Positions 11,445-43,735 of a stretch of 64,000 nt of DNA are shown piece by piece; within the stretch, counting starts at the first letter, position 1, and each line of letters opens with the position of its first letter. The notes under the pieces were generated by a model. The model did no database searches. It saw nothing but the letters and a program-made list of their open reading frames with translations, and had not been told where the DNA came from. This DNA is from Anthoceros angustus (Eukaryota > Plantae > Anthocerotophyta): the NCBI GenBank assembly GCA_010909165.1, contig VJWM01000011.1:248001-312000 (forward strand), in the 5' to 3' direction. The position numbers and the translations under genes were made by a program.

Positions 11445-11942
11445 TGTCATGCCGTGTGATACTAATCTCTGCACTTGGGTTTAGTGCTTGATTAGCATTA
11501 ATTAATCTACTTACTTATCTTTAAGTAAGTAATTGTGTTAATTAATCTAAAGTGTTATATTAGCGTTGATTAGTGTTAATTAATCTAATGTGCTTAATTA
11601 ATCATTGATTAGTGTTAATTAATCTAATGTGCTTATGTTAAGCATTGATTAGTGTTAATTAAACAGGTAGCAATAGCTGGATAAGCTTAATATGCTGGCA
11701 TATTCCTTGCATATTATAATCAGTATTCTTAGGATATTTCCGCATACCGCCAATAGGATATCTTAGGAATATGCCGCTGGTCGATATATGACCCTTCCAT
11801 TGACAAGCTCGATCATACCGTCTCTGACATGCAACGCAAGAGCGCTTTCGGCGAGGCCAAAGCTACGACCCGGTGAGTACGCGTGAGAATCTGTTGTTTG
11901 AGACTGTGCCACACGACGCGAGCTACTCCCTCCCGTTGTTAT
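11445..11942 (+). repeat. 5' LTR (repeat A1) of the Gypsy element
   Basis: Begins TGTCATGCCGTGTGATACTAATCTC and is homologous to ~39819-40443. It contains AT-rich ~44-bp internal repeats with TTAATTAA. It is followed by TGGCGATC at 11946, a possible tRNA primer-binding site. Confidence 0.8.
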
Positions 11943-16280: not shown

Positions 16281-16739
16281 CTTACCAACTTCAAACCAAG
16301 AAGGCGGGGTTGCTGGGTTCGGGTGAAGGATATTCAAGACTCGCATCTCAACAGGAGAAGGCGAGTTTGAGGGCAAGGAGAGCGAGCACGAGGAAGGCAA
16401 GCCATCTCGAGCCACAACCACATGAGTGGTTAACAGCGCCGAGTTGAAGAGCAATCAACGGCCGCCTAAAGGAGTTGTTGGAGGCATCGCGACATGTGTT
16501 TGCTTTCACGCTATGAGATGGGGAAGTACACCAAAGGAAGTTCCACATAGAACTCGACTACGATGAACCAGTGTTCCAGAGGCATGTGCTCACAAGGCCG
16601 AGTGGGATTTGGTTGAGAATCGATGCCAAGAGCTTCTCAAAGGGCTGATTCGACGATCTAACTCCACTACAAGGAGGCTACCTTTTACAAATGGGTCTAA
16701 GTTTAGTTAGAGGAAACTACAACACTCTTACTGACTCAA

Positions 16740-18440
16740 AGCCTGTTGTAAGTTTTTGAACATTTACAACAAGGGTTCCTAACTAATATGATGTGGCATG
16801 GATTTTACAACGGGGTTTGTTGACATGGCATTTGACATAATTTTACAACGGGATTTGTTGACATGGCATGTTGACACAAATTTTACAACGGGGTTTGTTG
16901 ACATGGCTTGCTCGTTGTACATGACGTTGTTAATTGTGCATAAACTCTTTTGATTTAGAAAACTATGGGGGTTATTTGTTAATAAAACTACATTTTGTTG
17001 AATTTATAATGACGTGGCATAAAGGATGTTGTAAAACGTACTTGTAAAAGACGTTGTAAACCATGTTTGTTGTAGATGTGGTTGTAAATTGTGCAAGACT
17101 TGATTTTTGGAATAATACCATTTATTGGAATATCTATGAATAGATTTATTATTTGCTGATGTGGCAAGTTCGTTGCAAATGATGTTGTAAATATGTTTCT
17201 CTGGATTTATGTTAGTTATGGGATTATCTTTTTTTTTTGTATTCTTGACGTGTCACATGCATTGTAGCTATGGTTGTAAAACGCATGAAAACCATTTTAT
17301 ATAAATATCTATAAATAAATTTATTATTTGCTGACATGGCAAGCTCATTGCAAATATCATTGTAAAATGGTTTCTCCAATTTATGTTATATTATTGGATT
17401 ATTCATTTATTGTATATTATTGACGTGGCACATGTCGTAACTATGGTTGTAAAATGCACAAGCCAGCCAATATCCATGAATAAATATATTATTTGCTGAT
17501 GTGGCATGTTTTATGTAAAATGCCGTTGTAAAATTTTGGAAGAGACCTTTTCCTTATTTATGTAATTTATGAGGTTATATATTAGTAAGATTCTTGATGT
17601 GGCATGCCTTTTCCTTATTTATGTAATTTATGAGGTTATATATTAGTAAGATTGCGATGTGGCATGCCTTTTCCTTATTTATGTAATTTATGAGGTTATA
17701 TATTAGTAAGATTGCGATGTGGCATGTCATGCCGTTGTAAATATGGAAGAGACCTTTTCCGATTTATGTCATTATGAGGCTATATATTTCGACCGAGTTC
17801 GCTCCACAACCCTTCTCCAATTGCAGGCGTGAAGATGAAGAAGAGGAATATAACGCTGGTGAGGAGGTTTCTCAGCGCGCTCGAATATATCGGCGAGGGG
17901 GGGCGTGCATGACGCAATGCATCTGCAGCTTTTCACCCGACTCCATCCTACAAGGACCGGAGATGATCCGGTTGTTGGAGCATCACTTTCCAAAATGATC
18001 AACAAGTGGGAGTGAAGAGGTATACCCAAACACACCTCTGTCCGTCACCTCCTCCCGCTTCTCTCCGATCGGTCACCTCCTCCCACGAAGACAAAGCATT
18101 CAATTGGGCTTTACCGGACCGTGTTTTACAACACGGTCCGTTTAAAAATGTACGTTATAAAATGTTTGAGACGGCCGAGATCGGGCCTCTCTCATGTTTT
18201 ACAACATCGTACAACCTAATCTAATTTACAACACGATCCATTGCAAACCTCACGTACATTGTAAAGCGTTTAAGAGAGGCCAAGATAGGCCTCCCACAAT
18301 TTTACAACATAGTCTAATTTACAACTTGCGCACTTGTATGTTGTAAAATGTATGACAAGGGATCAGCCTCTGCGTTTACACCAAATTCACAACGTAGTCT
18401 CATATACAAGGTCCATTGCAAAGCGATCTTGCAGCGTTGT
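16740..18440. repeat. Left subterminal repeat region of the CACTA
   Basis: Dense TTTACAAC/GTTGTAAA and GATGTGGCA/GACATGGCA motifs, including a 3x ~59-bp tandem repeat at ~17545-17730. Confidence 0.8.
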
Positions 18441-19079: not shown

Positions 19080-19560
19080 AAAACTTGATGCGCATCTTCT
19101 ACTTCGCCACACTTTGCCTACATGTCCACGGGCAAGTGCCCACAAGTGTGTTATCTAGTCCTCTCTCCACAATCAGGAGTGCACACCTTATAAGGCACTT
19201 GCGTTTACCGAGCCTTGGAAGGCAAGCAAAGGTAACATGGTTGCCACAATCAGCCCTCCTTCTCCATTTGTCCATACGAACAAGCGCCTCTTGGCCAAGC
19301 CATGATTTGCATACCCAACTATCGGGCCGTCCATGTCACGACATCCTTTCGCCTAACCTATCGAAAACCGTGTTTGCCTCTTCCAGATTCACCACGGTTT
19401 GCGTACATGTCCACCGCATTGGCAATAAACAAGTTCGGTGGAATGTCATGCAACATATCATGCCGCACTTTTCGCTAGATTCGTGTCCACAAATGCACAA
19501 GCTTGAAGGGCTGCAAAGATGTGGGCATCCGCCTTCACACGAGCGACACATCGCATAGTA
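19080..19560 (-). pseudogene. Captured PLS-class PPR gene fragment
   Basis: Degenerate PPR motifs VDMYAN.G.LEEANTVFDRLGER.VVTW and VDM*AKCGEVEDAHQVF, with stops and frameshifts. Confidence 0.6.
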
Positions 19561-19871
19561 AAGTTGTATCGCCTCATTAGGCTCCCCATGTGTAGCATGC
19601 GGAGATTATTGAAAACCACATGAAGGGATTTGGTTTGCCCCCTCCGTAGCCTACCTCCGGATACATACATGCAAGATATGGTTCCCCAAGTATGTGATTG
19701 ACTCATCCAAGTTTGACTGAGATCATGAACGTCATCCCACAACCATGTCCTTCTTATCTCGCACAAAGTTTTAGCGACATATAAAATGGATGAGGAATAG
19801 AATAGTCTATCTACATGATTTTACTCCGGCCTCGATAGCTTTCCCTACTCACATAACGTCGATGGTTACAG

Positions 19872-20661
19872 TGTCACGACTCCCATATCCAATCCGCACA
19901 CCTCCGCTCAGCTTGGGAGCTCGACTTGGAAGGAGAAGCACAATGACCCACGCATATTCAAAGAAACAAGCTTCTCATCCAACAAGTCGGCTTGAACATG
20001 TTGTTTAACCCGAGGACCTCACGGACTCCTTGCGAATGTCGTGAGCGAGAGCTCCTCTTACCTCGCCTAGTTTCCCACGCACAAGAGGGGAGTCCTAGGA
20101 AGTGGTGATGGGAGGACGGTTACTTGGTGTGGTCACTGAGAAGCGGTGGCCGCTCAAGTCCGCTTACACAGTCCGTAGTCCTATCTATTCAAATAGGTAG
20201 GACTCAAGTCCTTGGTCTTTGGGGTTTGGGAAAACAGACTCAAGTCCTTGGTCTTGGGTTTGAATGATGTTCCTTGGTCCTTAGTAGCAGATAGAAGCCT
20301 ATTTCAGTCCTTGGTCTTGAGGTTCGGAAGGATGTTCCTTGGTCCTTGGGAAAATGGTATGTAGATAGAAACCTAGTCCTTGGTCTTCGGGTTTCGGAAG
20401 GATGTTCCTTGGTCCTTGGGAAAAGTAGCATGTAGATAGAAACCTATTTCGAGGGCCGAGGAAGGCAACTTCCTTGAACCATGGGAATTCCGTTTTCTAG
20501 ATATTGCATGTAGGGCTATATATGCATGTTAGGTAGACTAGGGGTAAAATTGGCACATTCTAAGAGGCAACCGAATCGCCCTAAGGTAATGGATCAGAAT
20601 CCTAACGGTGTGTACTACCTAATGGGATGCACGATTACGAGCATCTTGGATGCTTGTGACA
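19872..20661. mobile_element. Possible solo LTR
   Basis: Bounded by the inverted ends TGTCAC and GTGACA, with internal short tandem repeats (gtccttggtctt; gatgttccttggtccttgggaaaa). The flanks TACAG/CACAT match only 3/5, so no clean TSD. Confidence 0.4.
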
Positions 20662-21290
20662 CACATGTGTTTGTCTCGCTTCAAAATGTGAACGCACAAG
20701 TTCATGCGCAGGCAAGGAATCCTTCCGATCTTGGAAGAGCGGTTGGGGAATGGCATTTTCAACATCGATGGAGAGATGTGGAAGACGCAGGAAGACTTCA
20801 AGCTTGAGTTCTCTTCAGTGCTGTGATTACGCACCAACGCGAGAGAGGTGCTCGCGGCAAGACATTGCCCAAGCTTGGGAAAGGAGGAGGTTGTTGACAT
20901 GCGGTGAATGATGGTGTGTGGAGCATGTTGCAATCCGCCTTCTTAATGCTCGTGAATTTTGCTCGATGATTCGTGCAAGCCATTGAAGGATCTCTTCGCG
21001 CATGACATTCGATTCCATTTGCAAAATCGGGCAACACCCTTAGGCAAGAGACATGCACCACCATCTATGAGTGCAATCGCGTTCCTTCCACAATTTGTGA
21101 GTGCATACGTGCCCTTTTGCATCTTCCAGCTCACCATATTTTGCGATCCTCTTTCATGGGTCGTTCAACTGCCAAAACTTGGCAGGCATTTTCCGTTCAC
21201 CAAATTTTGCATACATGTCCACTGTAGGTGCCCACCACTACATTCTCCAGCAGCCGAGCCCTTGCTGTACCCATAAGGGCATTCCATGTC
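20662..21290 (-). pseudogene. Second captured PPR gene fragment
   Basis: TWNALMG and ENVVVGT..VDMYAKFGE motifs, degenerate. Confidence 0.5.
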
Positions 21291-21399
21291 ACCATATCCT
21301 CGACAAAGCAAGCAAGACTACAAGAAAGGTTAGGGAATCACCACTAGTTGTCCATCATAGTGAAGACTAAACGAGGTTCTTTGAAATCATCATCCCCAC

Positions 21400-22525
21400 T
21401 TGCCAATTAAGACGATCCATGTAACGTAGGGGTCGTCGTTCAATAGCCCATCATAGCATATGATGGATAACCGAGAGACAGACCGAGATTCTTGAATCAA
21501 GCAGCTTATCCCCACTCGCCAAGACCACATCCATGGTGCTCCCATTCCTCCTCCATAAGATGATCCGGTGGCGTGGCGCGTCGTTCTCTGACTCTCCGAG
21601 TGTCCAAAATTTGTCGACTTATTCTCCAAAACACGGAAGGAGGATTCGCACTCCTCTCTCGAGGTACTTAGCGCCAATTTGAGTAGGCGGGACAACTTCC
21701 CTACATCGGGCGGGGAACCCCAAGCCGGATGGCGCCACTTGTTCGCATGGCGGGCAGGGAGACTTGTATCACAACCATCTTGTGAAGCAAGCGGTGGCTA
21801 TGTCCTCACCTTGTTTACTATGTGTCCTCAACAATGGTCGAAGGCTCTGCGGCGGTTTTCCACGAGGACAAGCCAAAGGCGGCCCGAGTACACCGTGCCA
21901 CACAAGCCGTGAAAGGTGGAACCCGATACAAAACGGCTCCCGCTTGAGTGCGCATCGGAACAAAGGCGGGTGTCCGCTGCGGAGAAATCATCAACGTCTT
22001 GTCTTCTTTACTCTTTCCGGGACTACGCCGAGGCAACGGCCAAGATCGGATACCACACTCAAAGAAAAAGATTGATTTGTGGCCCAATTCTAGTGCCTCA
22101 TCGCTACCAAGAAGCCGGAAGAGGTCGATCATCGAAATTGGCGCGCAGCAACTACGCCGCAACAATCGGTCATGCGTTGGGCGTCGTAAACCCTTAAACC
22201 ACGAACCCGTTGCCTTACGGAACCCCAACAAGTCCAACGGTGAGGATGTGCAATTTGAAGAAGGGACGTCGGTGGCGGAAACCTACGCACTAACTATCTC
22301 GGATGTCGGTACCCATGTCGCATTAATATGCATCCGAGTTGAAGTCCGTTGCCTTGGATGCATTCGATGAAAGGCGATGCACCACGAGGAGCGATGCGGT
22401 GGTCGTGGTGACGGGCGGGCGATCAAGCGTGGAAATGGACCATGGTATCACGCTTTGCAACATTGATGATTTCACCGGACATGCAAGGATCCGCATCGGT
22501 AGAACCCCAACAACGGTGACCTAGC
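21400..22525 (-). pseudogene. Retrotransposon gag-like fragment
   Basis: Degenerate retrotrans_gag-like text (ATGSWFKGL..IFFFECGI) and a decayed zinc-knuckle-like motif near 21790-21830. Confidence 0.35.
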
Positions 22526-23149
22526 ATGTTTTAAGAAAAACTAAAAATATTTTTGAACACCAACCTATATCAACTATCTATCTATCCTCCCATCGTCTCT
22601 CCCTCTTTACCTCTTTCGCATTGTACCCTTCCTTGCCCCGCATAACATGTCTATTACTCCAACTCTACTATGTAACTCATTGGTCATCATCCGCTCATAC
22701 TATATCATCTTCATCATCCTCACTCATGCTATCCCGACTAGAAGCCTCACGTTGTACTATCGTCTTCCACTAGAAGCCTCACGTTGTACTATCGTCTTCC
22801 ACGTCGTTTGTACTCACCATAATTATAATTAAATAAGTGAAATATTTAAGACTTGGGATACTTTTTATACTTATAAGAAAAGCTTTAAAATATTTTTCAA
22901 CCTATCAATTACCTATCTATCCTCCCACCCTCTCCACTCCTTATCCCTCTATAATCTCCACTCCTTATCCCTCTATCATCTCCCTTCCCCTTCTCCTTTC
23001 CACATAACAAGTCTATTACTCCAACTCTACTATGTAACTCATTGGTCATTATCGCTCACGCTATCATTGTCTTCATCATCCTCACCTATGATATCCGCAT
23101 CCTCATCATCTTGACTCATGTTATCCTCGTCTTGAGCCTCACCTTGTAC

Positions 23150-26100
23150 TATGCGTCTTCCACGTGCGCTTGTACCCACCACAATTTTCCATGCATTTTA
23201 GAATTCTCATACAAAAGACTTGCTCCACTTTCTCCGATACTAGTACAAATGGCTCATCCTCCAACTTATCATTGGATAACATGACATCGTTAACCATGAA
23301 CATACGAGATGTATCTGTTTTGATGGTCAGTGCTCTTTGTTCCATTGAGCCTTGAACCATCTCACCTTCAACACATTTACTTTTTAGACGGCCCTAAGTC
23401 CACCTCCAAAATCTTTTCCACCTTTCCAAAGATAGGGAAAATCTGCTATAATAGGTTCGGTGTCCCGCGATGTGAAACACATGCCGGCTATATAGATGTT
23501 TTATAATGCTATCACATGTATTCTTTCCCTATCGCATCTATAGTCCTTATATGATTTCCATATGCCCACATCATTTTATATGATCGCACACGAGGAGGTC
23601 CTCGCACAATTGCACATCCAACCCATAGGTTTGTCGCATTTCCCTTTCTTATACTTAACTTCATCTATCAACCATTCGCAAAGGGCGTTGCTCGTCGTCT
23701 ATCTCATACACTTTTCGCCATTTTTGAGTACAATGAGTTTTCCACTAACACTTTCCTCATCTTGCATTTCCACATCATTCGGTCATAATTTTGCCATTCC
23801 TTGCAATAACACCCCACATTGGGTGACATCATCTTCTGATTTCCACACTCTTGGTGCCTCTTTATGTGTATTTCTAAAGAACTTTGAGCTATAAAATATT
23901 ATCTTTTGTCCTAAGTATCCTAAAGCCATGCTACCTTTTGGTCGGCTTTTTGTCGAACAAATCCCTTTAACACAGCTTTTATGTGCCTTTCTAAGAACGA
24001 TATTGAGTTGGTCCACATAACTCAACCTCCCGCACAAGATGAACAACAACATGTACTTGACTTGTCGGAAAAGTCATTGGAAATTCTCTCTCCAACACAC
24101 ACATGATCTCCACACTTTTCACCTTCATAGCTGGAATTTCATCCTTCGCAATTTCTTTTGAACAAAGCCACGAATAGCTCGGCAAGATCACATATAGCCT
24201 TGTGAACATCATGATGTATTAATCCTTTCAAGACAATTGGCCACAAATCCGTTGATGGTGATGATCATGAGACTTTAACCACGAAATTCCCTCTTCTCTC
24301 CCTTTAGAAAACAACGCTCAAATTTGACCCATACCACAGAGGAATGATCTGCAAATCCTTGTTCTCAATTTTTCCTCTGCATTAGCATACATTCGCCTCT
24401 TTTCTGCCATGTCCAAGAACCGGTCTTGGTGTCGTTATAAATGTCCGTCCACAGGTTCGCCAGTTTTTTAGTTACCTTGCACCCCATTTACAATGTTTTG
24501 GCCTCTTTGTCTCCTTCCACAGGCGATGGCCTCGCATGGGGCCACCAATCTTGTTTGGTATTTGAATACTCAAGATCTCTCGACTACCAAGGGAATCTTG
24601 ATTCCCACATATGTGTGCCAAAATCATTGACTTACATTCTTTCCAATGTGCATGATATCAAATAAGTGTCGATCAACAATATACGCAACCACCAAATAGC
24701 ATGACTAAAAGTTAACCTTCATGAATAGCTATTAGTCTACCTACCGATGCTACCAATAATATAATTAAAATATTCTTGAAAAGGGTAATACTTGCAAGAC
24801 CCCATATGCATGCATACATACCTCCCAAGATGGAAGCTCCCGAAAATTGAAGGCTCGTCGCTAGTAACACCCAGCTGTCTTCACCATTGTCTTTTGCATA
24901 TTTCCGGTTAAAGCTTTCGATCATAATATCCTCCGGAGTTGGTGCATAGTCCGGATGAATAATTTCCATCTCACCTTTCCATTGAATGAATCCCGCTCTT
25001 CCACTCTAAACTTGTGTTCCTCGTAAAATTTTCTAAAATTCTTATCATACGTCATTTTGTTTGTGAACATTGACTTTCTTGCTTCTAATTTGTCCCAACA
25101 TATCGGACATGCCCGCTTCCCTTTTGTTTGCATTTTAGAAGTGAAAGAATATCCGGATAATCATGCATCGTCCACAACAATAAGGCCTTCAATTTAAATT
25201 GTCTTTGAGCATTTCCAATAGCCATAGAAGCATCTTGTACGACCACACCTTCCTCCCACAGTACCTTCAACTCTTCGATGAGTGGTTGAAAATATATCTG
25301 CATCTTTACTTGCTTGGACCGGAATAATCATTGACAACAATATATGCCCATTCTTGATAGATAACCAAGGAGGCGTTATAATTGACAAGAAGCACACAGG
25401 CCATATAGAATACCTAGAACTTTGGTGCCCAAAGGATTAATCCCATCCGTAGCAAGTCCTAATCGAATGTTGCGTCTCCTTAGCAAACTCGATAAGTGTT
25501 GTCCACATGTTCCCATGCATAGCTATCCGATGGGACCCGCATAATCCCATCATTAGACTTATTTGTGGCGTGCCATGACATCATACTTGCTAGCTCCGGA
25601 CATCTAAACATTTGTTTCAATCTAGGAATCAATGGAAAATATCAAGCTTAACCTACACACTCGTTCTTCGTGTCAATTCGATACCTATGTTCCACACATC
25701 TTGCGAATAGCAATTGAAAACTCTGTGAACAACATACAATCATCTTGACAAGCATGTATGGATGTATATGTTAGGCCAAACCCTTAAGCATCTTTTTAAT
25801 TTCAGCCCTACTTTTGGCAACTTGTTGCCACGAGGCCTAATTTGCCTAGTAATGATAAAATTGAATTCAAAGATGCATCCGACCAGCCATGCCTCCTTTG
25901 GATGTTCAATAACAATAAAATGAATGCCAATAAACTTATCTCGGCTCCAACCCATAGAGGCGTAGTTCTGCGGTGTGCATCGCCTTTAATTCCTCGGTGC
26001 AAGGAATCGACTGTTCTTTAGTCATTTCCGATGCCAAACCCCACCAAGTGCCTCCACCAACTCTATGGTCACTTGTTCGTCGGGATGAATGTTGACATGT

Positions 26101-26156
26101 TCTTCATCAACCTCAAAATGATCATCAACCTCAATAAAATCTTGTTCCTCTTCAAT
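23150..26156 (-). pseudogene. CACTA Tnp2/TnpD transposase core (Transposase_21, DUF4218, DUF4216 regions), frameshifted
   Basis: TPLWVGAEISLLAFILLLLNIQRRHGWSDASL, NIRLGLATDG, YSIWPVCF, QPLIEELKVLWEEG..LLWTMHDYP, ACPIC, DIMHI and CVLEREFP..QVHVVVHL..EVELCGP. Confidence 0.88.
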
Positions 26157-26382
26157 CTATTTATTCAATCACACGCACAGAATAAATATCAAATAAGTAT
26201 ATAAAATATTGTAGTTCTATATAGAATAAATTAATATTATAATTTCAAAACTTTAGTATAACCACTGTTATTAATGAAATATTGAACAACATGCAAAACT
26301 AAAAAGGTTAAGAAGTCAAGTGAGGAGAGTATATACTAATTGTTTTGTTGCAAATATAGTCAATATACACAAGGTACAAGAC

Positions 26383-27231
26383 CCTCAACATCAACTCTTC
26401 TACATCCTACAACAAAAACTATTCCACATCCTCGTGCATCAAATTTGCCTTCAATTTCTTCCACTCCATCATGCGTAATTTAATGTGTCTATGTACTCTT
26501 CCCGCCTTCCTTTTGGCTTCAAATGGTTCGGGTTATACCAATTGTAATCAACAAACAACTCTTCCCGCATTAATGGTCCTCACGCCCAAGTGCAAATCCA
26601 ATCAAGATGGTCGTCACTTAGTAGCTCATGCCCATCCGACCTTTCTTCCCAAATGCAATTTTGCTTGATTGCGATATTTCCACTACTACTATTCATATAT
26701 CCCACATTCCCCATATGCAACATGCCCATCGAGGTACTCAATTGGGCCATCATTAACATCTTTACGGAGTCTATTGAAAGTCAATGCATACTTGAAATCG
26801 GTAACTGTTGTAGTTCACTATCTTGTTATATTCTCCCTGTATACTTTGGACCCCAAACACAAACAAAGGAACTCCATTCACATTATCTTTTCTCACTACG
26901 ATTTTCTCCATGGAAAATAAACCCAACCCCATGGTCGGGTTTGTTGCCTCCTTCACTATCCACCTTCGCCCCAATATAGAAATGACTTGTTAATAGGAAT
27001 AGGTCCCTTCTCCCACATTCCCCATTCTCTAGGGTACACGCCTTTCAAAAGATGCTTGTATAAAACAATAGCATCATGAGACTTTGGATCTTCCCCTCTT
27101 TTGGATGATAAGGAGGTGCAATAAAGGGTCCGGTCTGCCTTTCCATCCAAAGGTTTTCCTACACCGCAAAGCCATGTGTCCACTCCTACGCTCACTTGTT
27201 ATAACATGCAAACAAATCGAACTCCTTCCAA
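26383..27231 (-). pseudogene. SET-domain (lysine methyltransferase fold) exon lying inside the CACTA transposase gene
   Basis: Across small frameshifts: RRWIVKEATNPTMGLGLFSMEKI, KYALTF, YLDGHVAYG/NVGYMNSS..QNC and ICTWA/VRTINAG(E)ELFVDYNW. These match the SET signatures GxGLF, RxxNxS and GEELxxDY. A ttttttatag acceptor precedes 27231. Confidence 0.75.
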
Positions 27232-27450
27232 CTATAAAAAACAACCATAATTACACATATGAATAATTAAACTACCTTTAATATAACAAGAGAAACATAC
27301 TTACCACAATTAGTATGCCACATCGTAATTATTCTATAGATAATATTATATAATTGCTTTATTATTGTATTTTCTAGCATAGAAGAAAAGGGCTCCATAA
27401 TTACTTCATTAGTTTATTTCCTAGCATAGAAGAAAAGGATTGCAACTCAC

Positions 27451-27720
27451 GGTTGTGGCTACGGGTGGTTCTCCTTGTTCGCTATTTCTTCTCCTCTCTC
27501 CTCCTCCTCCTTCTCCTCTCCTTCTCCTCCTCGTTGTTCTTCTCCTCCTCGTCCTCCTTCTCCTCCTCGTTCTTCATCTCCTTGCGGTTCTCCACCGGGA
27601 CTTCATTCTGGGAGGTAAGGTCCATTCTTGCGCAAATGTTTACGTGCTTGGTTAGCTCAGAACTCGCCTTGCACTCTTTGCACCAACATTTTGGAAAATA
27701 TATTGGATATTTGGGCGCTT
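27451..27720 (-). pseudogene. N-terminal exon of the CACTA transposase (transposase-associated CxC..HL..NG domain plus acidic tract)
   Basis: KCWCKECK...RKHLRKNGPY followed by an E/K-rich tract. It ends at a GTGAGT donor at 27450. Confidence 0.65.
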
Positions 27721-30096
27721 AAATCTGAGCGATCCATAAGGACCTACCCTCAACAATGATCGTGGGTTAGCTTAAGCGACAACTTGCCCCTGTCTTCCGA
27801 GCACGTTGGAAAGTGCAGGCTACCTTCGATGAAGTGCTCACCGCCTCGCTCCAACCTCCGTGATCGGCGTAAACCGTCGAGCCAATTCTAATCTAGAGCA
27901 ATTCCATGCAACTTCGATAACGCGATACTCAAAACGCTTTACAAAGAGCATAGACTGCTGCAGCGGACTTGTAGCTATCTAGCATCCGGATGGTCGATTT
28001 AGGTGTGCAGTTTTATTGACCCTTGCTACTAGAAGGCCCTCGCCGCGATGGAAGGCCCTTCTAGCTATGTAGTGGATGGTTAGTACAAGAGAAAGGCCTC
28101 TTACAGTGCTTGTTAGGCGGTCAATCCAAAGCGCTTTACAACACGAGGCGTTGCAAATCGGTTTGGGAAATTTGCAACGCTCTCTTATCAACGCACTCGC
28201 AGCAACATTTGCAACGCACGTGACCAATTCTAATCATGAGCAATTGCATGCAACTTGACAATACTAAACGCTTTGCAAAAGACCCGCAGCGGACTTGTAG
28301 CTATCTAGCATCGCGCGGATGGTCGACCCTTGCTATGAGAAGGCCCTCGCTTCGCACAATGGGCGGCTTGGCCTCTTACTCGATGATGCCGCGAAACGCA
28401 GCGCTTGGCCTCTTACAGCATCGGTCCAAAGCGCTAGCTAGCGTTACAGCTTTGGGCAATTTGCAAAGCATTCGTAAAGCACCGTAGTGTGCTATTGATA
28501 TAGCCTTAGCTTACTTAAAGGCGCAAGCCTTTCCTTATTGCGTGGGACTCAAGATTGTGAAATGTGTGAGCAACTTTATATCAAAAGCTCGAATGCCTTT
28601 ACATCGATAGGCGGATCGTCTTTGCCAACCTCGCGTGACTTGGGTAGACTACGAAACCACATTTGTGATGAGTTCATTATCACTCGGATCCGGCTCGGTC
28701 CGTGTCGGAGCATAGTCTTCACAAAGGTAAGGTGGCTCCGTCATGCTCCATTCGTGATGCCGATTAAAACCTTGAGCCCCAAACAAAATCTACCTTGTTA
28801 GCATTTATCATGCAGAAAGCAGATCACTCACAGACTTTTACACTTACGATAGAAGGAGATGATTAGGTTAGGCACAAGATCCATTTCTCCCGTCAAGTCG
28901 AGTCATCCGAGTTCCGCTTCTTCACAAAAGTAAGCCCTTGGAGACCACGGATCGAGAGTAGTACCAATGTGATGATAGCACACCAAGGCGTGCAGCGTGG
29001 AAGCATGTGACCAAAAAACAAGGACGAGTTCCATCCGGAAGGGTGGGACCCTTCTCTTTCTCCGAGGAAGGCTAGGAAGCGGACGCAATGTTACACAACC
29101 CTTGTCACAAGGGTCAAAGTTTGCACAATTCAGGCATCACCTCCTCTTCATCACGCATCTCCTCCGGCTGGGATCCACCTCCGGAAGGTCCTCGGCCGCC
29201 GGCGCCAGTTGTCGGCCATCACCTCCGGATGGTTCTCGGCCGGCTCGCGTTGTCTACCGCCATCGCTGCTCAAAACGCACTTGGCCGGGTCGGGCTTAAC
29301 ACAATCGGAGTTCACAACCGAGTTCACAATCAGGTCGGACAAACACAATCGCTCAAAGTGTGTGCGGCTCACTTTGAGGTACCGTCGATTCGCGCAGGAA
29401 CGGATCAGCTGTAAAACTATAGTGTACAGACCGAGTTCGCACTGGGAAACAGGAACAAAGTGACAGGCCCCCAAGGAGCCCCTTACTCTCAAACTCCATG
29501 GCGTCAAAGAAACCATATGTGGGTCTTTCAACTGTCTCGGCAGTGTACAGTAGAGTGGGTGTGGGCGGTGTTAATGCGGAACCTCGAAATGCGTTCTGGT
29601 GTGCGATCAGAGGATTGAACTCTCATTAGGTACCGCCTAGCCCGCTTGCTGTACTGGCAACATCAACAACTGGCATGATGATGAGTGCCAAGAAGACTTA
29701 AATTCTTTAGCAGCACCGTTTAAGGAGGGGCGAATCAGAGGTTTTAAGACTCGGGCTCAAGTGGATGGCCGAGGAAGCATTGCCCCTTTAGCCCTTATTC
29801 TATTCATTCCCCGGATCTTTTACACATTAAAGGGGCACGAGTCCCAAGCAATAGCCTTGAAAGCACCTAAGGGACAACATAGCTACGCTCCATACAATCC
29901 CTCTATCGCCATCAAAATATCTCCGAGGAGCACACTCGCTAAGCAGCCCTGTGCTCAAGCACTCCGTTGTCATATCATATCCATTTTCATGCCAATGGTT
30001 TCCCTCAAAAGGAAAGAAGCATTAAAGCTTTATTTGTAGGCTTGCATGGGTCACCATCAAAACCTCATCACTCATATGCTTTCACCCATTCTGACG

Positions 30097-30406
30097 CCGG
30101 GTAATTGCAGAGTTGCGGCATGGGGACCTCTTCCACTCCTCCAATATTGTGTCCAGCATTGAGTTTGATCGGGATGACGAGCTATTTGCCACTGCTGGAG
30201 TATCAAGGAGGATAAAAGTGTTTGAGTTTGCAACGGTGGTCAATGACATGGCTGATGTGCATTGTCCCGTGGTAGAAATGTCTACCCGCTCCAAATTGAG
30301 TTGTATGAGTTGGAACAAGTACATAAAGTCGCACATTGCGTGCAGTGATTATGAAGGGATTGTTACAGTATGGGATGTGAATACGTGCCAGAGCATCACG
30401 GAGTAT
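30097..30406 (+). pseudogene. COP1: Captured COP1 WD40-region fragment
   Basis: Uninterrupted RVIAELRHGDLFHSSNIVSSIEFDRDDELFATAGVSRRIKVFEF..HCPVVEMSTRSKLSCMSWNKYIKSHIACSDYEGIVTVWDV..SITEY. Similarity stops mid-exon at both ends, and no other COP1 exons are nearby. Confidence 0.85.
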
Positions 30407-31189
30407 GTGTACCAGACAGGCCCAGCGCCTAAACCTCACCCGAAGTTTATTACTTGGTTCTCGCGGGATTCTGTTCTGGCCCGCAGCTCCACTCCACCGG
30501 CTAGTTGCAATCTAGTTTTCTCAACTAAGTGTTCGCCACAAGAAGCCGAGAACTTTGCAAAGGCAGGGTGTGCATGTTCAGGCGTGGTGCCTTTTTGCAT
30601 ATTTAATGAATCTCCACCAATTGTGATGACCTTACTTTGACCTCTTTCTTGTAAAAAAGCCACCCTAACATGCAAAAAGCCATTTGGGCACCAGGTGAGC
30701 ATCTTTGCCTACCATGAACTAAGGTGAACAGATACGTATGTACACAAGAATGTAGGGGATCGGTTTGTGCGCATGACCGATCCTAAGCGCCGTGGCCGAC
30801 CTTTCTTGAGAAACAAGAGCCGAGCCGCACGGTAGAGAGAGAGGGTCTCTTAGTTTCCTTTTGTGCGTTCCATATGTGTACCACTTTTACCTACTAGAGA
30901 TTTTAGAACGTAAAAGTGAACGCGTTGTAAATAGTAATAGTTTCTAATTTTACAACGGAGTGTGTTGTAAATGGTAATAGTTTCCGACTTAACAACGGAG
31001 CGCGTTGCAAATAGTAGTTTCAAAGTCGTTTCATACAAACTCACGCACTGCAGTGCACGGTAGGTGACGCAGTGCACATGGCGGTGTGCAATGCATGCAA
31101 GATCTTGTCCAAGGAACATGCTTGCACACAAATCGATATAAAGGCGGGTTCATATGCAGTAGATGTTTACATACCGCGGCGTATGTGTT

Positions 31190-33512: not shown

Positions 33513-33639
33513 CTTGGCTAACAAGGATGTACATGGCATGCATGGCATGTGCATACAAGCATGTGGCCTATACATGCCAGCCACATGCACCGCAGCATGT
33601 ACAAGCATATTCGATGTTTTCCTTCTCATGTGTCGGGTT

Positions 33640-34860
33640 GGATTAAAGAAGATTCATACGATTATGAAGTGCTCCAATTTCGGTTGAGGTGGGCACTTCA
33701 TGGATCCATTGATTGGCAACCGGGAGAGAAACTAGAGACACAAGCAATTGTGGAGGCAGCCATTCAAGAGATGTTGGTGGGATTTGGAGCATGGCTCATG
33801 TGTGTGACCAAATGTTCAACACCATGTTGCGCAATTGGAAGAACAATCTTGCAAGATGCGCAAGACAATTTCTTGAGGGTAATCATCCACCTAAGTATAA
33901 GCCTCGTGATATCTCGGTGACCGGTGGGATCGCATTGTGGAGAATGAAAAGCCAAGGCCGGGATGGAGATGTCGCACAAAACGCATAGCAATGTTGAGGA
34001 AGTTGAACTCGGATGCTGCCGTATGCCCACTTTGGTAATGGTGGGTTTGTGAAGTTTACAAATCGGTTTTACCAACTCTTTGGTAGACGCCTCACAGCAA
34101 GAGGCAGGCGAAGGCCGGGAAATTGGATAATAAAACTTGAAACATATTGGGCGCCAATCTTCCTCATCCGGCGTTTGGCTCCAACCCCAGAATAGGTGCC
34201 AAACAATTGTGGCGGGACCTCAAGGATGCTGGTTACAAAGATGATGATTTGGATGGTAAGATTTTGATTTGATGTCTTTGCAAGTTTTGATTGTCCTATT
34301 TTAACTCGTTTTTGGATTTGCCATAGGAGCCGTATCGGCATTGGGCGCAAGCAAATGGATGATAATGACTGGTTTTTGGACAATTTGGTGCCTAGATTGA
34401 AGCCCGGGTTAAGTGAGGATCTTTCTCCTGTAGTTCTTATAGAAGATCTTTCAAGTCTTTGTTGTAACACCGCTTCTTGGTAACATATTCGATTCTTGCA
34501 GAATCGGGTGTGGCCTCCGCCCCTGGTGGGAAGCCTTAACCTCCCAAGTGTGGTCAAGACCGGTGTGGAACGAAGCCACGATGAAGTACTTGTTGAAGTT
34601 GAACCACTCCATCTCATGGAAGAGGTGGAAGAATTTGAAGAGGTTGAGGTATCCTCTCTAAATGCGAGGAAAAGTTTTTCAATCTCATGGCCTCTCATCG
34701 ACGGGCAGAACTTGAAGCTCAACGCCTTTCTGTGAAGCTAGGTCTGGACTACGCCAAAGAGCTCAAGTCATCAAGGGTGAAGAGCATGAAGAGGAAGGAA
34801 ATGAGGCTTCAACAAGTCCAATTTGAAGAGATCAAGGAGCGAGGAATTCTAGTTTGGTGC
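33640..34860 (+). pseudogene. Probable CACTA second gene (TnpA/Transposase_24-like), degenerate
   Basis: Protein-like spliced fragments (MFNTMLRNWKNNLARCARQFLEG..PRDISVTGWDRIVE) inside the CACTA, on the strand opposite the transposase. Family assignment rests on position and weak motif resemblance. Confidence 0.4.
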
Positions 34861-34899
34861 TTTCTTTTAGTTGCTCCTTAGAAACTCTTAGAAATTGAT

Positions 34900-35490: not shown

Positions 35491-35736
35491 AGGATCATGT
35501 TCATTTTGGGGTTTAGAATCGCTTGCATTTGGTAGTAGCATTCCATTTCTCGTGTGACTAATGCACAACAAGGTGCAAGATACAAAATTTACAACAAAGG
35601 ACGTTGTAAAACACTTGTTGTAAATATGCCCCATTTAAAGAAGCTGAAAATAGATATTTGTGTTATTAATAATATGTATTTTGTTTAAAAGTCTTTATAT
35701 ATATATATATATACTTAAAAGGCGTTGTAATTTAAA

Positions 35737-36810
35737 TGTTGTAATTGCTTTTCAATTGGGATGTTGTAGATGGTTTTGTAAAGCAGTCGTTGTAAAGCGT
35801 TGTACCCACAACGTCTCAAACTTAGATGTTGTAATTGCTTTGCAATTGGGATGTTGTAGATGGTTTTGTAAAACAGTCGTTGTAAAGCGCGTTGTACCCA
35901 CAAGGGCGTCTCAAACTTAGATGTTGTAATTGCAATTGGGATGTTGTAGATGGTTTTGTAAAACAGTCGTTGTAAAGCGCGTTGTACCCACAGGGCGTCT
36001 CAAACTTAGATGTTGTAATTGCTTTGCAATTGGGATGTTGTAGATGGTTTTGTAAAGCGTTGTAAAGCGCGTTGTACCCACACGAGACGTCTCAAACTTA
36101 GATGTTGTAATTGCTTTCGCAATTGGGATGTTGTAGATGGTTTTGTAAAGCAGTCGTTGTAAAGCGCGTTGTACACCAGACGTCTCAAACTTAGATGTTG
36201 TAATTGCTTTTGCAATTGGGATGTTGTAGATGGTTTTGTAAAGCAGTCGTTGTAAAGCGCGTTGTACCCACAGACGTCTCAAACTTAGATGTTGTAATTG
36301 CTTTTGCAATTGGGATGTTGTAGATGGTTTTGTAAAGCAGTCGTTGTAAAGCGCGTTGTACCCACGAGACGTCTCAAACTTAGATGTTGTAATTGCTTTT
36401 GCAATTGGGATGTTGTAGATGGTTTTGTAAAAGCAAAGTTGTAAAGCGTTGTACCCACAGACGTCTCAAACTTAGATGTTGTAATTCCTTTTGCAATTGG
36501 GATGTTGTAGATGGTTTTGTAAAAGCAGTCGTTGTAAAGCGCGTTGTACCCACCGAGACGTCTCAAACTTAGATGTTGTAATTCCTTTTGCAATTGGGAT
36601 GTTGTAGATGGTTTTGTAAACAGTCGTTGTAAAGCGCGTTGTACCCACACAGACGTCTCAAACTTAGATGTTGTAATTCCTTTTGCAATTGGGATGTTGT
36701 AAATGGTTTTGTAAAATGTCGTTGTAAAGCGCGTTGTACCCACACAGACGTCTCAAACTTAGATGTTGTAATTCCTTTTGCAATTGGGATGTTGTAAATG
36801 GTTTTGTAAA
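35737..36810 (+). repeat. Right subterminal tandem array of the CACTA, ~12 x ~93 bp
   Basis: Unit tgttgtaattgctttgcaattgggatgttgtagatggttttgtaaagcagtcgttgtaaagcgcgttgtacccacagacgtctcaaacttaga, built from the GTTGTA motif. Confidence 0.93.
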
Positions 36811-37107
36811 TGGCACCACGTCATCACATGGTGATGTGGCAATGAGGGCCATGTCATCAAATTATGCCATGTCATCACGATGATGTGGCAATGAAGCCAT
36901 GTGGCAACAACATGCCATGTCATCACTTGGTGATGTGGCGATGATGTGGCGCCACATCACCACTTTAATGACATGGCCGGGCGGCCATGTCATCAATTTT
37001 ACAACGTCATGAAGCTCTCGGTTTACAGCGGGCGTTGTTGCGCGTTTACAACGCCACGCGTTGTAACACCCGTAAAACCGTTGTAAAACCCTCATTTTCT
37101 TGTAGTG

Positions 37108-39685
37108 CTCGCGATGCAGCGGTGCGGCGATTGCCAGAAAAGAAGGATGAGAATGGATTGTGGACGGGCGGAGAGGAGTGTGGTGACTATCGGCCGTTGA
37201 GCGGCGAATCCCACATGACCACTATCCCATGCCCGGGTGAAGAGATCTTCGACACCATTGGGTCTGCCAAGTTCTTCTCAACATTGGACTTGAGGCTAGG
37301 GTTTCACCAAGTAGAGATCGTCAAGAAGACAAGAAGAAAAGCGTTCGGGGCGATTGCTTGAGTGGAATTACATGCCATTTGGGTTGAAGACGCCAACGCA
37401 GTTCAAAAGGTACATGGACAATGAGCTCAAGGACTTGCATTTCGCCAAGTGCTACATTGATGATGTCATCATCTTGACAATACCTTTGAGGAGCATCTAC
37501 AACATCTTGAGCGGTCTTTGCTAGGTGCTTGTGGGTTGAAGGCCCATCCAGGAAGTGTCGATTTGGAGAGGATAAGGTGTTGTACTTGGGTCATTGGATC
37601 ACGCTGGATCTCGCCGCATGCCACCAAGGTGGAGGCAATCGTGCATTCCGTGCCAAACGACATCTCGTTGAGGGCATTCTTGGGTTTGGCGGTTACTACG
37701 AAGTTCATTCCGCGGATGAGCGGATTGCGGCCATTGAATGACTTGTTGAAGAAGTTGGTGACTTGGCGTTGGACTCAAGAGGAGGAGTCGCTTTCATGGA
37801 GTTGAAGGGTAGACTCATGAGCTCGCCAATTCTTGGTCATCCAAACTTCATGGCCGTTCGTACTTTACGATTGGAGCAAGTCGGCATAGGCGATCTTGCG
37901 GATCAATGACAAGGAAGAGGAACATGTCGCTATGCCGTCGGAGCAACAACCGGTGAGTCCAACTACTCGCCTATGAAGGAGAATGTCTTGCAGCGTGTGG
38001 GCGTCGGACACTTTTCGTACTTGTTTGGACATCAATTTCGACTAATCACCGACCATCAACCCTTGCATTGGTTGACGAGCAGCTTACGGAAAGGCGAGGT
38101 GGGCTCTCATTCTCCGGGAGTATGACTTTGTCATCGAACACACCGGCGGTAGAGTTCACTCTAATCTTGATGGGTTGTCAAGGAATCCTCTACCTCGTGT
38201 GAAGACACTACAGGCCGGGCAAGATTCGGATGACGAGCAACCTGAGAGTAGTCCGGATACCATGTTGGCCATCTTGAGGATCGAAGATGACCCTCCACTC
38301 ATCGCTATGCGGTCCGTCAGGACATCGGGCGGATGCAATAGCGGTGACCTTCCTAAGGTCGGGAATTGCCACAAGGGCTTTCATCTCGAGCGGCCAAGCT
38401 ACGAGAAGGTGGCTCGGTACTATTGGAAGGAGGACATAATGTATGTCCGTGATTACAGAGATAGAATTGTACCCAAGCCGGAGGTGAGACTCATCACCCA
38501 GTGCATGAAGGCTTAGGGCATTTTGGTGCTAAGCGCACCTCGGATGCTCGAGCCACACACAGGCAAGGATGTATGGAGATGTGGAAAGGTCGCAGAATGT
38601 AGAGTGTGCGATCGAGTGAAGGCAAGGTTCACGACCAATGATGTTGTGCTTCACTCTCTGCCGATCCGAGGACTCTTCTACAGGTGGAGTGTGGATCTCA
38701 TGCCGGACATGCAGGACGCGTCGAAACAAGCATGTCATGCTAATGGTGGAGCATTTCAAGTGGTGCGAGGTTGCCATCTTACCCAAGCGTGACTCTCGGC
38801 TTACCGGTAAGGCGTTCTTGGCTTCCGTTCTTAGTCGATATGGAGCATGTGCAGGTTCTCACCGAGGCAAAGAATTCGTGGGGAATTCAAGACTTGCTTA
38901 GAGCTTGATTGATCATCGACGTGCGTCGAGATCATCCTCAAGCCGATGGACTTGCTGAGCGCTTAGTGCGGACCTTCAAGCGGGCCTTGCGTATTGTCTC
39001 ACAAATGACCAAGACATGGGATGAAGGGATGCCATACCTAGTGCTAGTGCAGGTGAGCAATCAAGCGACCTTGAGCAATTTTTCACCATACTACTTGTTG
39101 TATGGGCGACAACCATTTTGCCAAACGTGAGGCAAGCAAGGCTACAAGCACCATGGATTGGCGCGGATGATTGCCTACGAGACACAGGCGGGAGCTTTTC
39201 AACGGATCATGCCCATGGCAATGGAGAACCTTGCCATAGCGCAACACATGGATCAACTGCGCTATGCTTACACGAGGAGGGACATGGAAACCCAAGGTGC
39301 GCAAGTTCGAAGTTGGAGATTATGTCTACCTGCATCGGAAGCCAGGCAACACCTTGGAGGTATCCACCAGCAGAGTCATCTTGCGGGTCGTGCGAGTAGG
39401 CAAAGATGGAGTGCTTGAGCTTGAAGGATCCGATGGCCGAAGATGGAAGGATCACCTCAAGAACTGCGCACCATGCCACTTACCCAATTTGGACCCTCAA
39501 CTACGGCCTACAATGTGGCGTCCACCCAAAGACTTGGAGTGTCAGGTTTGTGGACGATGATGATGATGATGCTTCTTTGTGATCGGTGCAATAGGGGATA
39601 CCACATGTTTTGTGTTCAACCACCTCTTGACATTCCAGGAAGATTGGTTTTGTGCACAATGCACTACATGAGGTGCGTCGTGTAG
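37108..39685 (+). pseudogene. Gypsy RT-RNase H-integrase with C-terminal PHD finger (frameshifted)
   Basis: LPEKKDENG..CGDYRPL, FSTLDL..GFHQ, MPFGL, YIDD (~37453), ITDHQPL, integrase WSVDL and HPQADGLAERLVRTFKRAL. PHD CQVC..LLCDRCNRGYHMFCVQPPL..DWFCAQC at ~39540-39662. Confidence 0.9.
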
Positions 39686-39729: not shown

Positions 39730-40522
39730 ATTGGTTTGCACCTATATACTGCGTATTAGATTTGTTTGCTTGGTTGTTGGTCGAGGAAGTGCTTATATGA
39801 ATTCAAGTGCTTACCTCGTGCGGCATGCCGTGTGATACTAATCTCGCACTTGGGTTTAGTGTTTGATTAGCATTAATTAATCTAATTACTTATCTTTAAG
39901 TAAGTAATTAGTGTTAATTAATCTAAGTGCTTATGTTAATTAAGCATTGATTAGTGTTAATTAATCTAATGTGCTTATGTTAATTAAGCATTGATTAGTG
40001 TTAATTAATCTAATGTGCTTATGTTAATTAAGCTAAGTTAATTAAGATGCATTGATTAGTGTTAATTAAACATGGTTAGCAATAATTGGATAAGCTCAAG
40101 TAATATGCTTTGGCATATTGCATATTATAGTGTATTCTTAGGATACAATAGCTAAGTGGATAAGCTCAAGTAATGCTTTGGCATATTCCTTGCATATTAT
40201 AGTGTATTCTTAGGATATTTACGGCATATATGATGCCGATAGGATATCTTAGGAATATGCCGATGCCGGTCTAGTATATATAGACCCTTCCATTGAGGAC
40301 AAGCTCGGATCATAGCTTGTCCTCTAGATATGTCTGTCTGAGGCGTTGTGAGGAGGCCATATGACTCAGGGCGATGTGTGAGGAATTTGCGTGTTGTTCG
40401 TGGGGAGGTGTGTTTGTGCCACGGCGAGCTACTCCTCTGTTATTGGTTTGCACCTATATACTGCGTATTAGATTTGTTTGCTTGGTTGTTGGTGGAAGTG
40501 TATATACAGATTGATTAACACG
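39730..40522 (+). repeat. Gypsy 3' terminal region: B1 (39730-39795), A2 (~39819-40443), B2 (40442-40505)
   Basis: A2 matches the 5' LTR. The segment attggtttgcacctatatactgcgtattagatttgtttgcttggttgttggt occurs identically before and after A2. The region ends ...TTGATTAACA(CG). Confidence 0.85.
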
Positions 40523-41365: not shown

Positions 41366-42640
41366 CTACATGAGTGACATGTTTGTGTTTCGGGGTAACT
41401 TTGTCAAGATATCAGCAGTGTTTGCATCTATGTGTATGTAAGTAAGTTTAACAATACCCCTAGTAGTGATATCTCTAACATAATGATGCTGAATTTCAAT
41501 GTGCTTGGTACAAGCATGGAAACAAGGGCACTCGACTAAAGACAACTTGGCTGACTGGTTATCGCAAAACAAAATGGTAGGCTCTTTCTGTTTTGCATTC
41601 ACAAAAGTTAGAAAAGCTCTCTCCCACTCCACTTCTTTTGTGGCATCAGTAAGACACTTATATTCAGCTTCCGTACTTCACAGGGCGATGGAAGTTTGTT
41701 TTCTACAGCTCCAATTAACAACAGCAGAGGACAAAAGGAAGGCATAAGTGGACAAACTCTTGCGAGAATCACCATCAGATGCCCAGTTAGCATCAGTGAA
41801 GCCATGAAGGGTAGGAGCATTTGCACTTGTAGCAAAGGCCAAGGTAATGGGTACCTTTCAGGTATCTGAAAACTCTCTTAATGGCTGTCCAATGATTCCG
41901 ACCATGGCACTCTAAGAATTGTGATGCCGTGTTTACAGAATACGTTTTATCTGGTCGAGTCCAGTTGTTGACAAAGAGGAGGCTGCCCACTGCATGGCGA
42001 TAAGGAACATCCTTCATGTCTTCGATATCAGCTGCAGCTATTGGACAGTTCTGCCGAGTAAGTCTTATGCCAGTTGCTCCAGGTGTAGAAGCTGCATGTG
42101 CCTTGTCCATGTTGAAGCGAAGTAGAATCTCATAGATGTATTCGTGCCGATGAATAATGATCAAGCCCTCATCCCTAATGCGTAGGACTTGAATGCCAAG
42201 GCAAAACTTGAGGTCACCAACATCAGTCATTTCGAACTCAGCTCGCAGCATATGTTTCACCTGATCTAACAAATGCTTGTCATTGGCTGGAAAAATGGCG
42301 TCATCAACATAAATTGCAAGGAGCACATAAGTTGAGCCATGGTCATAGATGTACACCGAAGGATCAACAGAACTCTGACAAAAACCAAGATTTTTGAGGC
42401 AAGTATCTAGTCTTTTATTCCACCGTTGTGCACTTTGTCGAAGACCATAGATACATTTCACTAACTGACACACCCAATCAGGGTGTTCAGAGTCCTCATA
42501 ACCTTCCGGCTGCTCCATGTATAACTCCTCCTCAAGAAGACCATGGAGAAAAGCAGTTTTCACATCCATCTGTTGAAGCTCTAGATCATGTTCAGCAGCT
42601 AAACCCAGCATGAGCCGAATGGACTGAGAGCGCACCACCG
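41366..42640 (-). pseudogene. Outer Ty1/Copia RT and RNase H
   Basis: QMDVKTAFLHG, LYMEQPEGY, IYGLRQS, YVDD, YRHAVGSL, CDNQSA and TKHIEIQHHYVR..ADILTK. Confidence 0.92.
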
Positions 42641-42769
42641 GGGATAAGCTGCATTGAGCTTGTGTTTAAATACCCACTTGTAGATAATAGGTGTCCCCCT
42701 CTGCGAAGAACAACATCGGAATCACTGAGAGGTGCTTGATCATCTCTTGTAGATGAGGCCCGTAAACCT

Positions 42770-43735
42770 TTCAGGCTGATGGAAGGAGCATGTTCAAACA
42801 ATGTTTGCCCCTCCCGTGCCCGGCGGTACCCGGACATGGGATCTTCCTTCGATAAACATGCTCCATCTGCACCACATGGAAGGGCCTATGACCAACCAAG
42901 GTCTTCCGCTCCCCGCTCACGCGACACGTCTGAAAAACGGCGAAGGCCACAACAAACGAAGAGGAGCCCGAATTATGCTCCGCCTCATTTGGCAACTCGC
43001 AGTAGCAGTACGTCCTCTCGCCCTTGGGACCCCAAGCCATGGCTCTCTTGTGCAACTTCATAACTTTGACTGTAAGCACGTCCGTTAACCGTGTATTATG
43101 CTTGTGTGTATCTTTGGATAATTGCAAAATCTGGCCTCAATGGACTACTTAGGGAGAGAACTCGCTTCCTTAAAGTGATAGAAGCAGCATTGTCATTCGC
43201 ATGAGCATGGGGAACGATGACGAGATCAGGACCCGCAATGAAAAACAAGGTAGGCAAGTGTGCTAAGAACCTGTCATCCTGGCTGAACAAGATCATATTC
43301 ACACGCCTTCTCCACTCAGCACTTTCACACCCTCGAACAATTGGTTTTCTTGACAATACTCTTCTAGAGCAACACATCGTCTTCTCACCCACATTAGGAG
43401 AACCAACAACACACAGCTCAAGGATGAATACGGTCGTTATGCTTAGCATCCAGCGGCATTCGAGATACCAATTTTCTTTGTCCCACATGTGGTAGAACTC
43501 CCCTTGGTACCTCCTCCACTTTGCCATCGCCTTGACTTGAATCGAACAAGTACCTATGTGATCGTCCGATCATTGCATTAGTAAAGTCCTCCTGTACCAT
43601 TGTGTAGCAAGCCTCCACAATCATCTCTGCCGCCTCAAGGAGCTGGTAATGCCCTTCGTCATTGTATTTGAAGTCCGCATATCCCGCAAAATAGTCCACC
43701 CTATTGTATGTGAACAAAAACCTATGATGACCTCA
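42770..43735 (-). pseudogene. TE-borne gene remnant, possibly a Ulp1/C48 SUMO-protease-like domain
   Basis: DLVIVPHAH...ITLRKR and ELPNEAEHNSGSSSFVVAFAVF loosely resemble the Ulp1 His and QxNxxDCGxFV blocks. Catalytic residues are not clearly readable. Confidence 0.3.

Follow-up and report, generated by a model that had tools for sequence, protein, structure and literature searches.

A divergent SET-like domain nested as multi-copy cargo inside the transposase gene of a plant CACTA element

Introduction

Primate SETMAR (Metnase) is a single-copy domesticated host gene, in which a host SET domain lies N-terminal to a whole mariner transposase. The locus described here likewise holds a SET domain beside a DNA transposase, but as multi-copy cargo of a CACTA element and with a SET frame that, in this copy, stops before the Tnp2 transposase core.

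SET lysine methyltransferases have also been recorded as cargo of mobile DNA transposons. In a recent preprint, red-algal Plavaka elements, giant (17–19 kb) members of the EnSpm superfamily, are described as carrying PAG2, a separate gene that joins an N6-adenine methylase to a SET domain and for which a role in chromatin modulation is proposed; the same source reports SET cargo in Helitrons and HarbingerS (bioRxiv 10.1101/2025.02.11.637652). Oomycete MuDR elements carry SET genes as well (PMC12730594). For plants, Table S6 of a survey of TIR elements assigns a SET domain to an accessory protein in one CACTA cluster out of 775 and to the transposase itself in one MULE cluster out of 1846 (PMC12973397); the CACTA cluster, a table row lacking species and gene layout, may or may not correspond to the present family.

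CACTA elements are further known to draw more than one protein from a single gene. In maize En/Spm, a single gene is alternatively spliced into TnpA and TnpD; of these, TnpA has a DNA-binding domain and counters silencing (PMC13547354; bioRxiv 10.64898/2026.08.24.746577). According to these two sources, Arabidopsis SPM3/7 likewise obtain a transposase and an accessory regulator from one gene, and a whole-word search of both returned no SET domain among Spm products.

Here, we analyse a window (the whole stretch of DNA under study, 64,000 nucleotides in length) for which an earlier sequence-only reading had proposed a CACTA family whose transposase, translated from one spliced transcript, would contain SET in its interior, an architecture it did not know from CACTA elements. 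We find that a divergent SET-like domain is indeed real multi-copy family cargo, nested inside a canonical plant CACTA transposase gene, whereas an accessory protein made by splicing is more probable than a single SET–transposase fusion. As in Plavaka, the SET domain is carried by an element of the EnSpm superfamily; unlike PAG2, described as a separate gene fused to a methylase, it sits within a canonical land-plant Tnp2 gene, the transposase is of the PF02992 type, and Pfam gave no match to an N6-adenine methylase domain in the pieces ahead of SET. Compared with HarbingerS, MuDR and Helitrons, which belong to other superfamilies and whose SET cargo is described as accessory genes, the SET-coding sequence here is an exon inside the transposase gene. 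The arrangement is reminiscent of En/Spm in that one gene is predicted to give both a transposase and an accessory product by alternative splicing, the accessory domain being SET in place of the DNA-binding domain of TnpA. Our literature search, with most subscription journals, Repbase Reports and bioRxiv supplements outside its reach, found no description of a plant CACTA element whose transposase gene harbours a nested SET exon. SET within the EnSpm/CACTA superfamily is nevertheless less unfamiliar than the earlier reading had assumed, given the red-algal Plavaka and the one plant CACTA row.

Element structure

The window contains a complete CACTA element of 20.4 kb (16665–37107), recognizable by CACTACAAG at both ends, a CTC duplication and subterminal repeats. 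On the left, the target-site duplication (CTC, 16662–16664) is followed on the plus strand by the terminal inverted repeat (TIR) CACTACAAG (16665–16673) and by a subterminal repeat field (16684–18347) with TTGTAAA/TTTACAA motifs in both orientations. The right end (35588–37110) comprises a subterminal array of ~94-nt tandem units, the TIR, which ends at 37107, and the second copy of CTC (37108–37110). The two TIRs match over 9 nt (16665 vs. 37107), and TTGTAAA/TTTACAA clusters at 16.7–18.3 and 35.6–37.1 kb mark the subterminal fields of both ends. Across the 64-kb window, 4 of 1346 CACTA pairs combined a TIR of at least 8 nt with a 3-bp target-site duplication; of these, only the 16665/37107 pair had the canonical CACTACAAG end together with repeat fields on both sides. 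An inner CACTAACTA pair around the transposase (22288/31882, ACG duplication) was rejected as likely due to chance: it has no repeat fields and shows low depth at both ends. The tandem array forming the right subterminal region comprises 11–12 copies of the ~94-nt unit at 35717–36838.

Besides the transposase gene, the element carries a captured fragment of the WD40 region of host COP1 (30095–30407, plus strand; E 3e-52 to COP1 structures). This piece reached 178 bits against plant-type COP1 structures and ~100 bits against RFWD2, in keeping with the window being eukaryotic DNA from a land plant. Contigs from two runs, X1 and X2, were compared with the window, and a 3098-nt X2 contig that matches the fragment with 7 differences at 310 sites likely represents the host COP1 gene.

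A second, frameshifted ORF-like region on the plus strand (33639–34878) points away from the transposase. A Pfam search of this region (33.6–34.9 kb) gave no match; it is possibly a candidate TnpA-like accessory gene, in an unusual divergent arrangement. Elsewhere in the element, the segment 21730–22365 has low depth and ~95% matches from contigs of both runs, and likely consists of further captured host pieces. At 19100–21800, both runs show a repeat of very high depth that has many internal joints and may represent a repeat family inserted into, or captured by, the element.

Transposase gene

Three parts follow one another on the minus strand: a Cys/His first exon, the SET stretch and the Tnp2 core. 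The first coding exon (27451–27737, minus strand) starts with an ATG at 27737, contains a CxCxxC and an HLxxNG motif and a charged low-complexity linker, and ends at a GTGAGT donor (27450). We take its CxCxxC…HLxxNG pattern to be a transposase-associated-like motif, but the assignment to PF13963 that had been expected for this exon found no match in Pfam. CWCKECK (27688–27668) and KHLRKNG (27641–27621) lie in two different frames; in the HLRKNG frame, the best for this exon, it ends in phase 2 and includes two stops in this copy. The micro-exon suspected by the sequence-only reading has a plausible counterpart in a 29-nt candidate (27333–27305, minus strand) with the region's best predicted donor (GTAAGT, 27304).

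The Tnp2-type (TnpD-like) transposase coding region is frameshifted and spans 23040–26156 on the minus strand, beginning with an acidic linker at 26156; the AG acceptor at 26157 is a candidate for the start of this exon. In agreement with a Tnp2 core downstream of the SET stretch, pieces at 25436–24924 (minus strand) match PF02992 (Tnp2; E 5e-13, 1e-8 and 2e-5) and pieces at 24218–23786 (minus strand) match DUF4218 (E 1e-11 and 0.03). A word-based protein search with a Tnp2 piece gave no match, which is weak evidence, and a viral scan with the Tnp2 pieces found nothing.

SET-like stretch

The SET exon opens at the acceptor at 27231, and its 5′ part, ~85 codons ahead of SET (26969–27231, minus strand), belongs to no Pfam family. 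The SET-like domain itself (26469–26968, minus strand) is recognizable by GxGxF, N(S)S and ELxxDY motifs and ends at a stop: MGLGLF (motif I, GxG) lies at 26932–26915, YLDG starts at 26736, NVGYMNSS…NC spans 26708–26655 with the N(S)S motif near 26693, and GVRTINAG (26586–26563) and ELFVDYNW (26561–26538) follow. These motifs, as well as CWCKECK, KHLRKNG, the GTGAGT donor and the 27231 acceptor, were found where the earlier reading had put them or right next to it; its AVRTINAG reads GVRTINAG.

The tyrosine of ELxxDY, which has a catalytic role in SET enzymes according to a published account (PMC4919437), is kept (26546–26544) and corresponds to Y78 of P0002, a distant homologue introduced below. 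The NH(S) pseudoknot motif is altered in the window and in P0002 alike, with the Asn kept and the His replaced by Ser; among 65 reference SETs, 57 have NH and 4 have NS (40 of the 105 references were unmatched by the motif pattern). Post-SET cysteines are absent. The SET frame terminates at a TGA (26471–26469), 24 codons past the tyrosine, after a Cys-free tail of 24 residues. A compact SET-like domain inside the transposase gene, with the tyrosine kept, NS in place of NH and no post-SET cysteines, is what the sequence-only reading had described. Its continuous SET exon, in contrast, was not confirmed: the motifs occupy three different reading frames, which in this copy are interrupted by five breaks from 26971 to 26562, and no single piece matched a SET family in Pfam.

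Evidence for the SET identity of the stretch is indirect but consistent. A search of 1.84 billion proteins with the C-terminal half of SET returned two matches at E ≤0.001. One, P0001, was discarded as a repeat protein matched via a short motif. The other, P0002 (113 aa; E 7.7e-4), hits PF00856 at E 0.0015, under Pfam's cut-off, and scores 0.96 against SET clusters in the Atlas. In a frameshift-aware alignment, P0002 reached 35.9 bits at 26736–26502 and at most 7.6 bits elsewhere, the runner-up value covering both strands as well as reversed and complemented controls. Window and P0002 share an unusual GN-x-GY-x-NSS plus IWEE signature at 33–35% identity. P0002 ends 35 residues after its tyrosine, and its gene call may run into an intron; an AlphaFold model of it was uninformative (pLDDT 36).

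A profile was built from 105 unrelated bacterial and viral SETs. Against it, a script-made read-through of the stretch, with X at the five breaks and hand-chosen break points, scored 14.1 bits (single-sequence E 1.5e-6), the match spanning motif I to the final tyrosine. None of 2000 shuffles reached this value (best shuffle, 9.1 bits), and a profile–profile comparison gave a probability of 95.8%. When P0002 and the window were combined into one profile and compared with the PDB, SET enzymes occupied 29 of 30 rows (best E 0.02). By this indirect chain, with weak profile matches, the stretch is SET, as the earlier reading had assigned it.

Other searches remained negative. A blind frameshift-aware scan with a generic SET profile peaked at 7.9 bits, under the control peak of 8.3; a PDB search with the window's SET C-terminal half yielded chance matches only; and the N-terminal half reached at best an uninformative 0.80 in the Atlas. 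Word-based searches gave no match for the N-terminal half among proteins, nor for the P0002–window alignment among proteins of 199–2000 aa, both being weak evidence, and a viral scan with P0002 found nothing. Two SETs from a metagenome scan were dismissed as family members, being bacterial-type. An assignment to the ATXR5/6 class from the KQNC/DYNxY wording was likewise dropped, as PDB E values of 0.3–0.9 fail to separate this class from EZH2 or KMT2; for the same reason, we call no substrate.

Copies and sequence variation

Run X1 is possibly the source sample of the window and therefore informs on errors and copy variety, not as independent support. The assembly contains many one-base losses: in two stretches, X1 contigs agree with it at every aligned base (0 substitutions), yet their alignments need 13 and 4 gaps. 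The SET stretch is multi-copy: its exon (801 bp) is matched by 147 X1 contigs, 101 of them at 99% identity or above, 27 at 95–99%, 16 at 90–95% and 3 below 90%. Summed depth, which is not a copy number, was 369 in the SET bin, 218–276 in the Tnp2 bins and 1–17 in three interior bins. The SET segment thus exists in more than one copy, at varied identity, in line with the earlier reading, which had ascribed SET to the family. Among the matches listed, a 2228-nt X1 contig (depth 31) matches 26029–26289 only, so that some copies may lack the SET part or differ in it. X2 contigs, whose RNA nature is a guess, do not cover SET or Tnp2 and are silent on expression either way.

Short-read contigs fully mend one of the five SET breaks, the frame into the NSS motif being restored by a contig that holds all depth at 26701–26709. 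A divergent contig supplies the +1 that the 26968 break requires, but together with a -1 located 33 nt upstream; at the 26566 break, contigs show only +1 where +2 would be needed; and two breaks had no indel row at a 30% share threshold, which probably hid minority indels.

This state of the sequence raises the question of whether the stretch is passive Pack-CACTA cargo or a decayed relic, i.e. a captured SET fragment that is copied along and gives no working enzyme. Several unmended breaks, a divergent contig that is itself out of frame, the NH-to-NS change and the uninformative P0002 model are compatible with such a fate, and the same element did capture a COP1 fragment. However, just 7 differences in 310 sites separate the COP1 piece from its matching contig, whereas no close named relative was found for the SET part. 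Variation ahead of SET is also biased towards silent changes. Of the 8 changes listed for the divergent contig at 27004–27037, 6 fall in third positions, and 5 of 7 codons are silent in the SET-directed frame, compared with 0 of 7 and 1 of 7 in the other two frames; this bias rests on 8 changes, with 10 of the contig's 22 changes listed, and has p 0.02 (~0.06 over three frames). Moreover, a homologue as distant as P0002 keeps the GN-x-GY-x-NSS and IWEE signature. We regard passive cargo or a relic as rather unlikely.

Splicing and gene structure

Splice signals between 26.0 and 27.8 kb were scored with a rough plant matrix from general knowledge. The acceptor at 27231 obtained 7.5, the second-best value among 145 AG sites, and the GTGAGT donor of exon 1 only -0.8. 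Seven indel states, all assembled from indels seen in short reads, were tried for the join of exon 1 to the SET exon; three of them are in frame, whether or not the micro-exon is included.

These signals bear on whether the SET exon might be an independent small gene that lies in a transposase intron, has a start and promoter to itself and does without exon 1. Precedents point in this direction: known SET cargo of HarbingerS and Plavaka is described as separate accessory genes, and Spm families alternate between spliced and split-gene designs, both according to the sources cited above. ATGs do occur within the exon (e.g. at 26932). Yet the exon is opened by a strong acceptor, exon 1 can be joined to it in frame, and it is preceded by a short AT-rich stretch between splice signals, which together make an independent gene distinctly unlikely.

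The strongest predicted 3′ splice site of the region (26406–26424, minus strand; score 8.1, best of the 145 AG sites) lies 63 nt past the SET stop. Judged by the matrix, it likely marks intron sequence of a transposase transcript that skips SET. In-frame SET-skipping routes exist without altering the sequence: exon 1 plus the micro-exon reaches the Tnp2 frame by 3 of 24 joins in one step and by 165 of 1307 joins in two steps (best summed score, 12.6), whereas exon 1 by itself does so by none of the 24 one-step joins and by 39 of the 1307 two-step joins. From the SET tail to Tnp2, in contrast, none of 45 donor–acceptor pairs gives a one-step in-frame join, and 46 of 2203 two-step joins do so, with a best summed score of 2.2 and a weak SET-tail donor. 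All of these counts include chance phase matches and the score sums cover different junctions; for these reasons, and because the exon-1 donor itself scores -0.8, they favour an alternative last exon but fall short of proof.

The same numbers weigh on the single spliced protein that the sequence-only reading had put forward, in which exon 1, SET and Tnp2 would be joined into one transposase with SET in its interior; such a protein would resemble SETMAR but still be mobile, and would methylate chromatin at cut or insertion sites. SET does lie between two transposase parts on the same strand, and one-base losses are frequent in the window, so that a frame error may underlie the stop at 26471. 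Past the tail, a shifted frame would encode a plausible helix and reach the 26156 exon in phase 0, the two-step routes from the SET tail offer some in-frame paths, and the donor that the fusion would need (-1.0) is close to the -0.8 of exon 1. Against this stand the TGA itself, where no indel row appears at a 30% share, and the lack of any one-step join. The exon end proposed at 26383 lies beyond that stop, and its donor at 26382 scores -3.1, which ranks 15th among the 24 GT sites from SET to Tnp2. The fusion would further need another frameshift, and two TAGs would have to be explained as codons altered by mutation; one of these TAGs provides the AG of the strongest acceptor in the region. 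P0002, too, ends soon past SET, although its gene call may run into an intron. Thus, the nesting of SET in the transposase gene stands, while a single frame through to Tnp2 would depend on low-scoring two-step routes, and we consider the fusion unlikely. Equally improbable is its fullest version, in which a still-mobile CACTA element would splice a working SET domain into its transposase (zinc motif–SET–Tnp2), use exon skipping as a switch, and let the transpososome mark its own ends and new insertion sites.

Proposed function of the SET exon

We lean towards the SET exon being an alternative last exon that gives rise to a separate protein of ~350 residues, with SET-skipping transcripts encoding the ordinary transposase. 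At the level of sequence, the TGA at 26471, the early end of P0002, the position of the best acceptor past the stop and the SET-skipping routes all favour a separate product. With SET as an alternative last exon, one promoter would feed two products, a protein from exon 1 and the SET exon and a SET-skipping transposase. The former would consist of the first-exon Cys/His motif, a linker, SET and the stop, with 3′ end formation expected in the AT-rich stretch after the stop.

Because exon 1 would be shared by both products, the SET protein would carry the transposase's Cys/His module and would likely dock in the same way, either on the element itself or on its complex. Once docked, it could methylate lysines, with the nucleosomes of the element as the most plausible place, and so keep copies expressible. 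Marking of its own chromatin in this way might help the element resist silencing, a role played elsewhere by TnpA and VANC. The SET product is probably an active enzyme, and if it is, its target would on balance be a histone.

Known plant anti-silencing factors, VANC and TnpA, are described as DNA-binding regulators in the literature consulted here. If the proposal is true, a canonical plant CACTA element with a SET enzyme of its own, attached to the first exon of its transposase, would possess a built-in chromatin writer, and some 'SET genes' in plant annotations would be transposon cargo. A SET-carrying CACTA element also offers a direct test of a transposon writing its own histone marks. 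The significance is tempered by the SET cargo already recorded in four other transposon groups and in one plant CACTA table row, and by a copy too broken to fix the gene structure.

Other features of the window

Outside the element, the domain scan covered 76 of 81 long ORFs, leaving out five overlapping repeat-derived frames at 12.2–12.7 kb. Host genes are closely packed at 109–9993, including a protein kinase (109–1212), a peptidase M76 (2052–2414), a GFO/IDH/MocA oxidoreductase (3858–5201) and a TFIIB zinc ribbon (9583–9993). On the other side of the element, Copia-type retrotransposon pieces with RVT_2, Pol_BBD, gag pre-integrase and SH3 domains extend over 41400–58100; this region contains ~2-kb internal tandem duplications at 50.7–57.4 kb and a reverse transcriptase in opposite orientation (41796–42665). 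Two related TAGTGTTAATTAATC-type repeat arrays, at 11477–11681 and 39852–40069, flank the element.
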